Below are positions 8,736 to 15,077 of a DNA stretch of 64,000 bases, piece by piece; position 1 is the first letter of the stretch, and each line of letters opens with the position of its first letter. A model generated the notes under the pieces. It made no database searches and was not told the origin of the DNA. It saw only the letters and a program-made list of their open reading frames with translations. The DNA comes from Pseudomonadales bacterium (GTDB taxonomy: Bacteria > Pseudomonadota > Gammaproteobacteria > Pseudomonadales > DC-out160): the NCBI GenBank assembly GCA_019090455.1, contig JAHRWA010000008.1, forward strand, positions 8,083 to 72,082. The letters are read 5' to 3'. The position numbers and the translations under genes are program-made.

Positions 8736-8829
8736 TGGCGGAAGAGGTAGGAGTCGAACCCACCAAGCACCTTATCAGCGCCTCACTGGCTTTGAAGGCC
8801 AGGCACCCCACCGGGGACATCGCTCTTCC
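8736..8829 (-). tRNA. selC: tRNA-Sec (anticodon UCA)
   Basis: The minus-strand sequence is GGAAGAGCGATGTCCCCGGTGGGGTGCCTGGCCTTCAAAGCCAGTGAGGCGCTGATAAGGTGCTTGGTGGGTTCGACTCCTACCTCTTCCGCCA. It has the anticodon arm CTGGC-CTTCAAA-GCCAG (UCA), a long variable arm, the T-loop TTCGACT and an encoded CCA. The overall layout matches E. coli selC, and the gene lies directly downstream of selA-selB. Confidence 0.93.
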
Positions 8830-8849
8830 GAGATTGATCGGAATCCAGT

Positions 8850-10784
8850 TTATCGTGTAAATTCTTTTTCTGGAAGTGTCGTGTCGATTATCCTTCGGCT
8901 GCTACCATCGCGTAGGGTAAAACGAATAGAGTCGAAATATTCCAGCACTTCGATGATGAGATTACGGCCTACGCCGGTGATGTTTTTGTAGTTGCCGACA
9001 TTGATTGCCTCACCCCTCGCGTCCAGTACTAATACTTTTTGTGCGTAATCAAGAAGTTGATGAGGTAGTCCATAACGCTTTTCGTTAAGTTTTAACACCA
9101 GCCCCTGACGCTGTGCACGATTCAAGGTATCCATCACTTTTGGTTTACTCCAGGCTGTCACCTTCATCAATTCTGAGACTAACGGCATCTGTGCTGCCTG
9201 CTTTTCAAAAATGGGCTTTAGCGTTTTCCAGTGCGGTGGATCGGCTTCCTCTTCTTTGGCTTTATAGCCGGGTGTTTGTACTAGTCCACCCACCATCTTG
9301 AGTAATCCTTTTTGAATGGCTTCAGAAAGAATCGCTTGAAACAGCGTGCTTGTTATGACGTTTTGCAATTGTTCTAGCAAAGCAGATAATGGTAACCCTG
9401 TTTTTTCGGGGTGCTTTAAATGCAGTTGCTGCACGGCTTTAAGTAGCGTTTTTTCAGCAACCTGCCAGTGCTCCTTGGCGATGATGTAGCAAATGCTTTC
9501 CTGGATAAAATGCTTAGCGCCATCCAGGTTTTTCAATGCCTGCGTTTCCTGATCGCGCAGGTTCCAACTGCGGCTGAAATCGCTGAGGTTAATTTCAAAT
9601 TCCTGAGTCTCAAGAAGTTGCTTGATAGACTGCTCGGCATCGTCATGTGACATCGCTGCCAGATACGTTAATCGCTGCTCTCTGGATTTGCCTGCGCGCG
9701 GTGCCAGAGGGTCGAGTATCACCCCTCCGCCGAGAGTGACGGTTTCACTGTGATCTCTCAGTAGAAACCTATCGCCGTGACAACAAGAAAAAGGCAGGGG
9801 CGACATCAGCTGTACGAGTGCCTCGGTACCCGGTTGAAGACGGGGTCGTGCAGCTTCATCAATAATATAGAGTCTCGCCTCAATATGTTTTGCAGCGATG
9901 TGTAACTTGACGGGTGACAAGTGTTTCACCGCAAACGGCGCATCGGTCAGCAGACGAAAACGCGCATCACAACGATGTACCAGTGGAGCATCGATTGCAG
10001 TTGTCAGCACATCACCTCGGCTGATTTGTTGTCTCTCAATGTTGCCAGTAATATTGAGAGCGCAACGTTGTCCGGCTTGTCCGCTTTGTGCATCCTTATC
10101 CTGTACCCGTAGAGATCTGACTCGTAGCGTTTTACCCAGTGGCAACAACTGTAGTTCATCACCCACATTGATCTTACCTGCTGCGACGGTTCCAGTGACC
10201 ACCAAGCCTATGCCCTTGAGTGAAAATGCGCGGTCGATAGACATGCGAAAGTGACAATCTAAATTGCGAGCATTGTGTTGCAGTGGATGATTCTGCAAAT
10301 AGTTTAGCAACTCTGAAATTCCCTCACCCGTGGTGTTGGAGACGGTGAACAGGTCGCATTGTTGGCTTTTTAATAAATCGCGCACTTGCGCGCCGACTTC
10401 TTTCACTCGTGTGGCAGGCACTCGGTCTATTTTGGATACCACCGCGACAAAATGTTTGAGCCCAAGTAAACGAAGAACATTCAGGTGTTCTATGGTTTGC
10501 GGCATGGGCCCATCGTCCGCAGCCACTACCAGCATCCCTAGATCTATGCCACTGACCCCTGAAATCATCGTGTTAATAAAACGGCTGTGGCCAGGCACGT
10601 CGATAAAGCCCAACCGGGTGTCATTGTTCTGGGAATCCGTGGCGAGTGGGAGATAGGCGAAACCGAGGTTGATGGAAAGACCTCGGCGTTTTTCTTCCTC
10701 CAGACGATCGGTATCGATACCGGTTAATTGTTTGATCAACGAAGTCTTGCCATGATCTACGTGACCTGCGGTGGCAATGATCAA
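8850..10784 (-). CDS. selB: Selenocysteine-specific translation elongation factor SelB
   Basis: The N-terminal GTPase has MIIATAGHVDHGKTSL, DVPGH and SKID motifs. The 644-aa length includes the long C-terminal extension characteristic of SelB. The gene overlaps selA by 4 bp and sits next to selC. Confidence 0.92.
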   Translation of the reverse strand: MIIATAGHVDHGKTSLIKQLTGIDTDRLEEEKRRGLSINLGFAYLPLATDSQNNDTRLGFIDVPGHSRFINTMISGVSGIDLGMLVVAADDGPMPQTIEHLNVLRLLGLKHFVAVVSKIDRVPATRVKEVGAQVRDLLKSQQCDLFTVSNTTGEGISELLNYLQNHPLQHNARNLDCHFRMSIDRAFSLKGIGLVVTGTVAAGKINVGDELQLLPLGKTLRVRSLRVQDKDAQSGQAGQRCALNITGNIERQQISRGDVLTTAIDAPLVHRCDARFRLLTDAPFAVKHLSPVKLHIAAKHIEARLYIIDEAARPRLQPGTEALVQLMSPLPFSCCHGDRFLLRDHSETVTLGGGVILDPLAPRAGKSREQRLTYLAAMSHDDAEQSIKQLLETQEFEINLSDFSRSWNLRDQETQALKNLDGAKHFIQESICYIIAKEHWQVAEKTLLKAVQQLHLKHPEKTGLPLSALLEQLQNVITSTLFQAILSEAIQKGLLKMVGGLVQTPGYKAKEEEADPPHWKTLKPIFEKQAAQMPLVSELMKVTAWSKPKVMDTLNRAQRQGLVLKLNEKRYGLPHQLLDYAQKVLVLDARGEAINVGNYKNITGVGRNLIIEVLEYFDSIRFTLRDGSSRRIIDTTLPEKEFTR

Positions 10785-13249: not shown

Positions 13250-13753
13250 ATGGCGACCGATGACCATTCAGAAATGAAGAATGCAACGACAGACAACACC
13301 ACTATTCGGAAAATTCTGGATGAGTCAAAAACCATTGCGATAGTGGGATTGTCGGGCAACTGGTATCGGCCGAGTTTTTTTGCCGCGAAATATCTGCTGG
13401 AACGTGGATTTAATGTCGTCCCAGTAAACCCTAATTATGAGGAGATACTGGGGCAGAAGTGTTATCCGAATCTTGAGTCTATTCCCGATAAAGTGGATGT
13501 GGTCGATCTATTTCAAAAAGTGGAGCAAGTGCCTAAATTTGTGCAACCCGCTATCGATATCGGTGCCAAAGTGCTCTGGCTGCAACTGGGTATTGTTCAC
13601 GAAAAAGCAGCGGCTCAAGCTCACAATGCCGGCCTAAAAGTGGTCATGGATCGCTGCATGAAAATTGAATACGCGCGATTGTTTGGCGGCTTGAATTGGG
13701 CGGGTGTCAATACCGGTATTATTTCAGCCAAGCGTCCTCGGCGATTACCTTAA
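13250..13753 (+). CDS. CoA-binding domain protein (YccU/YneT-like)
   Basis: The ATG at 13250 lies 2 nt after the selenoprotein stop; the longer track ORF (13166) overlaps that gene. The protein has the typical IAIVGLS.....PS.....YL...G..V.PVNP pattern and a short Rossmann-like CoA-binding fold of about 165 aa. Confidence 0.75.
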   Translation: MATDDHSEMKNATTDNTTIRKILDESKTIAIVGLSGNWYRPSFFAAKYLLERGFNVVPVNPNYEEILGQKCYPNLESIPDKVDVVDLFQKVEQVPKFVQPAIDIGAKVLWLQLGIVHEKAAAQAHNAGLKVVMDRCMKIEYARLFGGLNWAGVNTGIISAKRPRRLP

Positions 13754-13778
13754 AAACCGTACTTAATAGGAAGTAACT

Positions 13779-15077
13779 ATGGCGGATCATGAGTTTGGGT
13801 TCGAAACCCGTTGTTTACACGCGGGACAGATACCCGACCCAGCGACCGGCTCAAGGGCGACGCCTTTGTACCAAACTGCTGCCTACGTGTTTGATGATAC
13901 GGAACATGCCGCCAGTCTCTTTAATGCCCAAACCTTTGGTAATATTTATAGCCGATTATCCAATCCCACTACGGCGGTATTTGAGGAGCGCATGGCTTCA
14001 CTTGAAGGGGGTAGTGCTGCACTCGCGGTGGGTTCGGGACTTGCGGCGCAGATGACGGCACTGCTCACCTTGTTGTCGGCCGGTGACGAACTCGTGTCGG
14101 CGAGCACCTTATACGGTGGCAGCTATTCGCAGTTTGATGTGACTTTTAGGCGCATGGGCATTGATACTATTTTTGTCGATCCCGATAACGTGGATAATTT
14201 TCGTAAAGCTATTACTGATCGAACAAAAGTCATTTTTATCGAAACCATCGGCAACCCTTCCAATAACGTGATCGATATCGAAGCCGTTGCGAATATTGCC
14301 CATGATGCGGGTATTCCGCTCATGGTTGATAATACCTTCGCCACGCCATTTCTTTGTCGACCCTTTGATCATGGCGCGGACATCGTCGTTCATTCCGCCA
14401 CAAAATTTATCTGCGGCCACGGTACATCCATTGGTGGAGTGGTGATTGAGTCCGGCAAATTTCCTTGGGACAACGGTAAATTTCCGGAAATGATAGAGCC
14501 TTCTAAGGGTTATCATGGCCTGCGGTTTTATGAGACTTTTGGCGATTTTGGCTTTATCACTAAATGTCGACTGGAAACCTTGCGAACACTGGGGCCGAGT
14601 TTGAGCCCCTTCAATTCCTTTCTCTTTCTTCAAGGATTAGAAACCTTACACCTTCGTATGGAACGGCATGTAGAAAATGCGGTGAAAGTTGCCGAGTTTC
14701 TGAGGGATCATAAATCAATATCCTGGGTTAAATATGCCGGGCTTGCTGATAACCCTTACTTTGATCTAGCACAAAAATATCTGCCCAAAGGCGCTGGTGC
14801 CATTCTTACCTTCGGCATCAACGGCGGCATGGAGGCGGGCATTAAGTTTATTGAGAACGTTGAGTTCTTAAGTCATCTCGCCAATGTGGGCGATGCTAAA
14901 ACCTTGATCATTCATCCTGCCTCAACGACTCATAGGCAGCTGAGTGAAGAGGAGCAAGTAGCGGCGGGAGTTGAACCGGACATGATACGCATCTCCGTTG
15001 GGCTGGAAAGTATTGATGACATCCTTTGGGACATTGATCAGGCGCTTGAGATATCTCAAAAAATCGATTCCGAATAG
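13779..15077 (+). CDS. metY: O-acetylhomoserine sulfhydrylase (aminocarboxypropyltransferase), PLP-dependent
   Basis: The N-terminus is [28 protein letters not shown]. It also has YSRLSNPT and the PLP lysine in [11 protein letters not shown]. The 432-aa length fits metY. Confidence 0.9.

Follow-up and report, generated by a model that had tools for sequence, protein, structure and literature searches.

What does a selenoprotein that resembles the B subunits of anaerobic amino-acid reductases do in an aerobic bacterium? The question is raised by a 64,000-nucleotide stretch of contig JAHRWA010000008.1 (hereafter the window, always at its full length of 64 kb), which its source annotation assigns to a metagenome-assembled genome (MAG) of the Pseudomonadales. 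In this window, a gene for a protein with homology to the D-proline reductase subunit PrdB heads an apparent operon with the genes for a coenzyme A (CoA)-binding protein and for the sulfhydrylase MetY, and this operon stands back to back with the selenocysteine (Sec) decoding genes selC, selB and selA. The original prediction, made from the sequence of the window, had described the arrangement as a self-contained selenium locus with a possible link to sulfur, selenium or thiol metabolism, and each of the features that it named was recovered at its position, down to the gaps of exactly 1 nt (selenoprotein to CoA-binding gene) and 25 nt (CoA-binding gene to metY). What is new here is the analysis of gene context, which ties a partner-free PrdB-like selenoprotein to CoA-handling proteins and points to two recruitments to a module of CoA-binding protein and MetY. 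The explanation that we consider best is layered, and we give it a probability of about 0.5: the protein would be a stand-alone reductase using Sec or cysteine (Cys), its substrate would be linked to CoA, and at this locus it would serve MetY-dependent sulfur assimilation.

For comparison, a pattern scan of species-representative genomes yielded relatives of the window selenoprotein in 557 genomes, and the best 80 of these loci (hereafter the family loci), together with the window, form a comparative set of 81 loci. A homologue search with the window protein returned 573 homologues, and an alignment of the CoA-binding proteins, used to scan metagenome contigs, returned another set of 80 loci (L087 to L166) at 54-79 % identity. 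Partner domains within the window were looked for in open reading frames (ORFs) of at least 150 aa. The window DNA itself was recovered in four independent public assemblies with 99.99-100 % identity, and the in-frame TGA discussed below is therefore not an assembly artefact.

The selenocysteine codon

The selenoprotein gene (12373-13248, plus strand) encodes 291 aa in one frame with a single TGA, which occupies codon 165 (12865-12867) in the motif VPL-U-PVC. At this column, 77 of the 81 orthologues carry TGA and four carry the Cys codons TGC or TGT, and full-length Cys homologues align over all 291 residues. Comparative hairpin analysis placed a Sec insertion sequence (SECIS) at 12871-12903 (plus strand). 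Its apical stem of 7 bp (12878-12884 with 12890-12896, AUCAGAC/GUCUGAU) closes the loop CGUGU and begins 13 nt past the U of the UGA, and a weaker outer stem is present as well. The hairpin is kept in all 70 distinct Sec-form sequences and destroyed in 4/4 Cys forms. Two of its pairs covary, namely 15-31 (UA and CG exchanged in 18 sequences) and 18-28 (GC and AU exchanged in 6), the latter change being synonymous on both sides. Paired cells amount to 86 %, a share that drops to 19-47 % once the 3' partners are shifted by 1-3 columns, and the covariation score of 0.135 was reached in none of 500 shuffles. It was the comparative analysis alone that revealed the hairpin; the minimum free energy fold of the 81-nt stretch around the UGA missed it (z = 0.07). 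Judged by these comparisons, the UGA at 12865 is a genuine Sec codon.

An in-frame TGA scan of the window gave no second credible selenoprotein gene and no GrdA-like gene with a CxxU motif, in line with the earlier statement that a single selenoprotein is visible here. Two candidates were set aside: a peroxiredoxin (42587-43147), which is complete without a UGA, and an in-frame ORF pair on the minus strand (50030-52117), for which neither a redox motif nor a family match was found. The latter comprises ORFs of 183 and 490 aa in one frame, separated by one TGA and 21 codons, with no Pfam match and no Cys at the TGA between them, and probably represents two genes.

Relation to PrdB and GrdB

Residues 33-235 of the window selenoprotein align with positions 17-218 of the 238-position PrdB model TIGR04483, at 109.2 bits and an E-value of 2.1e-31 against a cutoff of 300. 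The model TIGR01918 gave 25.5 bits (cutoff 65.45), the models for GrdB, GrdF and GrdH match residues 95-187 alone with 22-34 bits, and the Pfam family GRDB (PF07355) gave no match to the window protein at E<=1e-3. Some homologues carry a precomputed PF07355 match. Public annotations assign the protein to the PrdB or GrdB family. Past the end of the PrdB model extends a strongly conserved C-terminal tail of 55 residues (RxPRDxTPRYQ...). Since the scores remain under the cutoffs and the tail is additional, we place the protein in the GrdB/PrdB superfamily but outside both PrdB and GrdB; by its sequence, it is not a subunit of a D-proline or glycine reductase.

Rather, the gene is a member of the marine "PrdB" family of UxxC selenoproteins, which earlier surveys had already listed (Zhang, Fomenko and Gladyshev 2005; Zhang and Gladyshev 2008). 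The likeness extends to the UxxC motif, the bacterial SECIS, the distant pfam07355/PrdB homology, the prevalence of Sec forms over a Cys minority and the abundance in aerobic marine Proteobacteria. With 42 Sec genes, the family was the third most abundant selenoprotein family in the Sargasso Sea survey (PMC1088965), and the Global Ocean Sampling survey counted 235 Sec and 110 Cys forms and found the family to be plentiful in the oxic surface ocean (PMC2398784). Neither work reports on gene context, on the absence of PrdA or on a function past the inherited proline-reductase name (PMC1088965, PMC2398784).

The D-proline reductase PrdB of Clostridium sticklandii and C. difficile is homologous over approximately 200 residues and also carries its Sec in a UxxC motif (U165-P-V-C168 in the window), which is tabulated for D-proline reductase and GrdB entries alike (PMC13188914). 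Its presumed mechanism consists of a selenolate attack followed by the formation of a Se-S bond via the neighbouring Cys. However, the window differs in that the PrdA pyruvoyl subunit and prdCDEF are missing, the host is aerobic, the protein bears the extra tail and the neighbouring genes are others. GrdB, GrdF, GrdH and FarB, the last a proposed fluoroacetate reductase (PMC10838667), share the superfamily and illustrate the diversification of B-type selenoproteins across alpha-substituted substrates, but these proteins have approximately 435 aa and act with GrdE, GrdA and GrdC in anaerobes. Within the window, none of the Grd/Prd partner domains (PrdA, prdC/D/E/F, GrdA, GrdC, GrdD, GrdE) was found, as had been predicted, and no large partner gene recurs in the 80 family loci, where the recurring neighbours are CoA enzymes. 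Furthermore, genes for an aa3-type oxidase are present (COX2, COX1 and COX3 at 25579-29421), so the host is taken to be an aerobe and not an anaerobic amino-acid fermenter.

AlphaFold2 gave a confident model for a Cys homologue with 54 % identity (predicted local distance difference test 93, predicted template modelling score 0.93), in which the CPVC motif lies at the start of a helix (163-178) that follows a strand (155-159). A U/C-x-x-C motif at a helix N-terminus after a beta-strand would correspond to the classic site of a redox-active CxxC. No solved structure resembling this model was found by sequence-profile search or Foldseek. Directly after the UxxC motif, residue 169 (codon 12877-12879) is Asn in the window and His in 80/80 relatives, so that the window reads U-P-V-C-N and the relatives U/C-P-V/I-C-H; the Asn is real, since it is present in the four independent assemblies. 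As a separate observation, two family loci contain a second, divergent PrdB-like selenoprotein paralogue a few kb from the first (L001, 13621-14502, minus strand; L008, 4437-5600, plus strand). Both paralogues have their own in-frame stop after ...VPV/TPV, and the copy in L001 is without the typical PRDxTPRYQ tail.

Gene neighbourhoods of the selenoprotein

Downstream of the selenoprotein gene lies the gene for a stand-alone CoA_binding_2 protein of 167 aa (13250-13753, plus strand), which matches positions 1-115 of the 116 positions of PF13380 with 132.2 bits (cutoff 22.8) and whose start agrees with public gene calls. It is followed by metY (13779-15077, plus strand), encoding an O-acetylhomoserine sulfhydrylase (homocysteine synthase) of 432 aa that scores 660.6 bits with TIGR01326 (cutoff 495.1) and 451 bits with PF01053, carries the pyridoxal phosphate (PLP)-lysine motif HSATKF and falls just under the cutoff of the equivalog model NF006096 (662.9 versus 726). 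Shine-Dalgarno-like AGGA or AAGG sequences precede each start of the operon, with AAGG just upstream of the ATG of the CoA-binding gene. A pattern scan of the plus strand found a terminator-like element approximately 150 nt past the metY stop (15229-15255, a hairpin at 15229-15245 and then a T-run) and nothing comparable in either gap of the operon; two weak matches both lie inside coding sequence. The linkage of the three genes is kept in 12 other loci. Based on these features, the selenoprotein gene is probably co-transcribed with its two downstream neighbours.

The divergent intergenic region of 173 nt (12200-12372), in which both promoters are presumed to lie, is not conserved, and the upstream sequences of clade-A relatives could not be aligned with the window. 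A known upstream RNA or riboswitch was considered and dismissed, with no such Rfam hit in the window at the gathering score or in 12100-12450, including the intergenic region, up to E=10; nothing was found in Rfam upstream of 16 CoA/MetY loci without the selenoprotein either.

Across the family loci, the genes found on the same strand within 300 nt of the selenoprotein gene encode CoA_binding_2 proteins (10/80), family III CoA-transferases (7/80), acetyl-CoA hydrolases/transferases (5/80), enoyl-CoA hydratases of the crotonase type (4/80), acyl-CoA dehydrogenases (3/80) and AMP-dependent ligases (2/80). Taken together, a CoA-handling neighbour from one of these six families is directly adjacent in 30 of the 80 loci (L053 has two), and one occurs within 3 kb in 49. 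CoA-handling genes reach a density of 1.64 per 10 kb up to 1.5 kb from the selenoprotein gene, compared with 0.39-0.46 per 10 kb at a distance of 3-7.5 kb. These arrangements involve unrelated protein folds with CoA as their sole common feature. In five alphaproteobacterial loci from Rhizobiaceae and Reyranellaceae MAGs (L044, L046 at approximately 9100-12700, L049, L051 and L057), a two-domain rhodanese is encoded upstream, and its gene runs into the start of the selenoprotein gene; in these loci, a gene for an SBP_bac_5 substrate-binding protein of an ATP-binding cassette (ABC) transporter comes after the selenoprotein gene. An apparent fusion of acyl-CoA dehydrogenase and selenoprotein in L071 was rejected, as the dehydrogenase is split across frames and represents a separate, probably frameshifted, upstream gene.

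The CoA theme extends to the Cys forms. P0015 has an acyl-CoA dehydrogenase gene upstream, and P0069 and P0003 have a CoA_transf_3 gene adjacent or near. As to whether Cys versions keep the same partners, which the original prediction had proposed to test, those examined have CoA enzymes as partners, and MetY was next to none of them.

The order selenoprotein, CoA-binding protein, MetY recurs with overlapping genes or short gaps in six other species-level genomes (L001-L005 and L007) and, among the metagenome contigs, on L088 and L089. Four genomes of sponge-associated Gammaproteobacteria (L014, L015, L019 and L023) have the order reversed, with MetY first, then the CoA-binding protein and then the selenoprotein; in the selenoprotein tree, they form a clade of their own (clade B). 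Whichever the order, the CoA-binding gene stands in the middle, and the selenoprotein gene borders on it and never on metY. Turning to the metagenome loci collected with the CoA-binding protein, MetY is encoded on the same strand in 60/80, in 54 of them within 200 nt and in both orders, and only 6 of the 80 lack MetY despite sufficient flank. The pair of CoA_binding_2 protein and MetY is thus a widespread, pre-existing module and apparently an undescribed conserved module of methionine biosynthesis; no mention of it was found in the literature searched, nor of an association of the selenoprotein with CoA-binding protein and MetY, with CoA enzymes or with rhodanese. Because the pair is widespread and independent, the selenoprotein is better regarded as an add-on than as part of a fixed three-gene unit.

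The clade-B pairs share 47-51 % (CoA-binding protein) and 57-59 % (MetY) identity with those of the window, while many pairs without a selenoprotein share 54-79 % and 61-89 %, respectively. As the clade-B pairs are more distant than many selenoprotein-free pairs, the selenoprotein appears to have joined the module twice independently. Of all the observations made here, this convergent clustering speaks most strongly for a functional link.

Approximately 15 of the CoA_binding_2/MetY loci also have a gene for a PRK08162-type acyl-CoA synthetase nearby, directly upstream where the order is readable, and in approximately 8 of these a gene for a PRK08139-type enoyl-CoA hydratase precedes it. An assignment to dimethylsulfoniopropionate demethylation, with the hydratase as DmdD and the ligase as DmdB, found no support in this form, as the ligase matches PRK08162 with 948 bits and reaches 304 with the DmdB equivalog model, which requires 822.

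The adjacent Sec-decoding genes

On the minus strand, the window encodes a Sec-insertion set made up of SelA, a tRNA-Sec and a SelB whose winged-helix domains are of the kind that binds the SECIS. The selC gene (8737-8830, anticodon TCA) was detected by ARAGORN and by Rfam (RF01852, 66.4 bits, gathering score 47) and starts 19 nt past the stop of selB. The selB gene (8850-10784) encodes the Sec-specific elongation factor of 644 aa (TIGR00475, 407 bits, cutoff 242) from a TTG start codon with the N-terminus MIIATAGHVDHGKT; its Pfam domains are GTP_EFTU, Beta-barrel_SelB, SelB-wing_2 and SelB-wing_3, the winged-helix part being C-terminal. The selA gene (10781-12199), which overlaps the selB start by 4 nt, encodes a selenocysteine synthase of 472 aa (TIGR00474, 575 bits, cutoff 268; PF03841, 514 bits). 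For SelD, no ORF with an AIRS domain was found in the window, as the original prediction had said.

A genuine Sec-decoding set therefore does stand beside the selenoprotein operon, but the notion of a self-contained selenium locus does not extend further, as selD is not in the window and the adjacency is not general. Neither selA nor selB occurs within 10 kb of the selenoprotein gene in any of the 80 other genomes (0/80), which leads us to reject the adjacency as a conserved trait and with it a general co-occurrence of GrdB-like, CoA-binding and metY genes beside selAB. There is also no trace of it on the two metagenome contigs with the three-gene operon (L088 and L089), and selABC beside the selenoprotein gene is a feature of the window's own population only. 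Sec-decoding clusters beside a selenoprotein gene resemble the window in that selA, selB and selC are grouped next to a client gene, but here the client is PrdB-like and the adjacency is limited to one population. The block from selB through selA, the selenoprotein and CoA-binding genes to metY (9000-15000) has a GC content of 47-50 %, compared with 41-46 % in both flanks. Such a difference would fit conserved coding sequence as well as a block acquired by transfer.

Proposed function and alternatives

According to the layered explanation, SelB, loaded with GTP and Sec-tRNA(Sec), would bind the conserved hairpin and Sec would be inserted at codon 165. The resulting protein would act as a stand-alone two-electron reductase with no need for a pyruvoyl partner: Sec165 would attack the substrate, Cys168 would resolve the adduct to give a selenenylsulfide, and a cellular thiol system would re-reduce the selenoprotein. 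The repeated placement beside unrelated CoA-handling proteins and, in one clade, beside a rhodanese suggests that the substrate is CoA-linked, and it could be a persulfide or disulfide of CoA or else an acyl-CoA with an alpha substituent. Since the CoA-binding gene is always in the middle, in both orders, the selenoprotein of the window operon may act through the CoA-binding protein. The likeliest role would be to serve MetY; in the most economical concrete model, improbable as it is in this specific form, the selenoprotein would free a reduced sulfur nucleophile (HS- or methanethiol), which MetY would condense with O-acetylhomoserine. Two supply routes are conceivable, one from a CoA-bound persulfide to HS- and one in which an alpha-thio-substituted acyl-CoA is cleaved to methanethiol. 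The rhodanese association points to sulfane sulfur, and the associations with transferases, hydratases and dehydrogenases point to the removal of an alpha-substituent from an acyl-CoA. The bolder form of this proposal, in which the marine PrdB-like selenoproteins as a whole are a distinct class of partner-free, CoA-linked reductases that here make the sulfur nucleophile of MetY, strikes us as improbable on the present genomic data.

The CoA-dependent persulfide reductases Npsr and CoADR-RHD combine bound CoA, a rhodanese and a redox Cys to convert sulfane sulfur to H2S; they are flavoproteins with the fold of pyridine-nucleotide-disulfide oxidoreductases. By analogy, a CoA-binding protein, a rhodanese and a U/C redox pair recur around the PrdB-like family. 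However, there is no kinship in sequence or fold and the components are separate proteins here, so the comparison serves as a lead only.

Several observations weigh against the layered explanation. Neither CoA_binding_2 nor metY is nearby in 70/80 family loci, so that the three-gene conservation that the original prediction had proposed to look for exists in both orders, yet in a minority of the family. Likewise, the predicted link to sulfur or thiol metabolism gains support from the recurrent arrangement, but because these 70 loci are without MetY, the general partner theme is CoA and sulfane sulfur and not an amino-acid metabolism that forms C-S bonds. A selenoprotein gene accompanies 2 of the 60 CoA_binding_2/MetY pairs, and the other 58 are without it, among them the closest relative pair (L087, with 79 % identity in the CoA-binding protein and 89 % in MetY); the module can thus dispense with the selenoprotein, and the operon is not the three-gene unit for which it had been taken. 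The neighbouring CoA-transferases, hydratases and dehydrogenases favour a role in the breakdown of acyl-CoA over persulfide chemistry. In the window protein itself, Asn169 may mean an altered or reduced activity. No sigma-70 consensus site was found on the plus strand in 12200-12372, and no promoter was identified there. Finally, the neighbour counts come from loci linked by kinship, which are not phylogenetically independent and comprise approximately 8 distinct arrangements.

In one alternative, the link to MetY is incidental. The true partner would then be the CoA-binding protein or CoA thioesters in general, and the selenoprotein would reductively cleave an alpha C-X bond of an acyl-CoA in catabolism, with some marine organic acid or osmolyte as the target and MetY nearby as the habitual neighbour of CoA_binding_2. 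It is in keeping with this alternative that, in both gene orders, the immediate neighbour of the selenoprotein gene is the CoA-binding gene and not metY, and that 20 further loci adjoin CoA-transferases, crotonases, acyl-CoA dehydrogenases or ligases without MetY, as the Cys forms do. GrdB-type cleavage of alpha C-X bonds other than C-N has also been proposed, for instance for fluoroacetate by FarB (PMC10838667). However, this CoA_binding_2 subfamily is tied to MetY in 60/80 loci, and a function exerted through it therefore likely concerns MetY; an irrelevant MetY would hardly account for two independent recruitments to one module, and no catabolic CoA genes stand beside the window operon. We consider this alternative possible but rather unlikely.

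Far less can be said for a selenium-handling unit, in which the selenoprotein and MetY would process selenide or organoselenium compounds, either towards selenohomocysteine or for the delivery of selenium to SelD. MetY-type enzymes accept selenide instead of sulfide, selA, selB and selC are physically adjacent in the window population, and the raised GC content at 9-15 kb would be compatible with a co-transferred block. Nevertheless, the adjacency is confined to that population, selD is not in the window and the CoA-binding/MetY pair occurs overwhelmingly without a Sec gene, which makes this account very unlikely. Still harder to credit is a canonical Stickland-type reductase for D-proline, glycine, sarcosine or betaine, with the selenoprotein as B subunit and PrdA or GrdE, GrdA and GrdC encoded elsewhere in the genome. 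The homology to PrdB that spans nearly the whole model (E 2e-31), the UxxC motif common to D-proline reductase and GrdB entries (PMC13188914) and the public annotations as PrdB or GrdB family speak for it, whereas scores far under the family cutoffs (109 versus 300 and 25.5 versus 65.45), the conserved C-terminal extension that PrdB does not have, the absence of partner domains from the window and of a large recurrent partner from 80 other loci, the aa3 oxidase of the host and the abundance of the family in the oxic surface ocean (PMC2398784) all speak against it.

Other features of the window

Directly downstream of selC lies a small biosynthetic cluster (1354-8708). On the strand of selC, it encodes a TauD-like protein with a weak match of 25 bits (7752-8708), a KamA-family radical-SAM aminomutase with 176 bits, just under the cutoff of 199.2 (6457-7662), and a non-ribosomal peptide synthetase (NRPS) with a single condensation-adenylation-thiolation (C-A-T) module (3038-6427); a flavin monooxygenase (1354-2913) is encoded on the strand opposite selC. 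Going by these domains, the product may be a compound that contains a beta-amino acid.

A haem/iron uptake cluster at 31613-38254 comprises genes for an ABC transporter of the FecCD type, a periplasmic binding protein, a TonB-dependent receptor and an HmuY-like protein; next to it lies a ferritin-like gene (31041-31556). At 55330-58637 (plus strand), two genes overlap by 4 nt. The first encodes a protein of 723 aa with domains of the DinB_2, FGE-sulfatase and methyltransferase families, the second a class I/II PLP aminotransferase of 379 aa. The domain architecture of the former is presumably that of OvoA, and the two genes look like a pair for the biosynthesis of ovothiol, a thiol-histidine, which would be a second thiol-redox feature approximately 40 kb from the Sec locus.

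Conclusion

The marine PrdB-like family, one of the commonest selenoprotein families of surface-ocean metagenomes since 2005, still carries a borrowed "proline reductase" label, which the present evidence contradicts. The CoA-enzyme neighbours, the rhodanese in one clade and the two recruitments to the MetY module now offer candidate substrates and assays for a family that has been an orphan for 20 years. If the link to MetY is true, the availability of selenium would be tied to the assimilation of sulfur and methionine in marine heterotrophs, and if the selenoprotein indeed supplies the sulfur, the ocean would harbour a selenium-dependent route by which reduced sulfur is assimilated.

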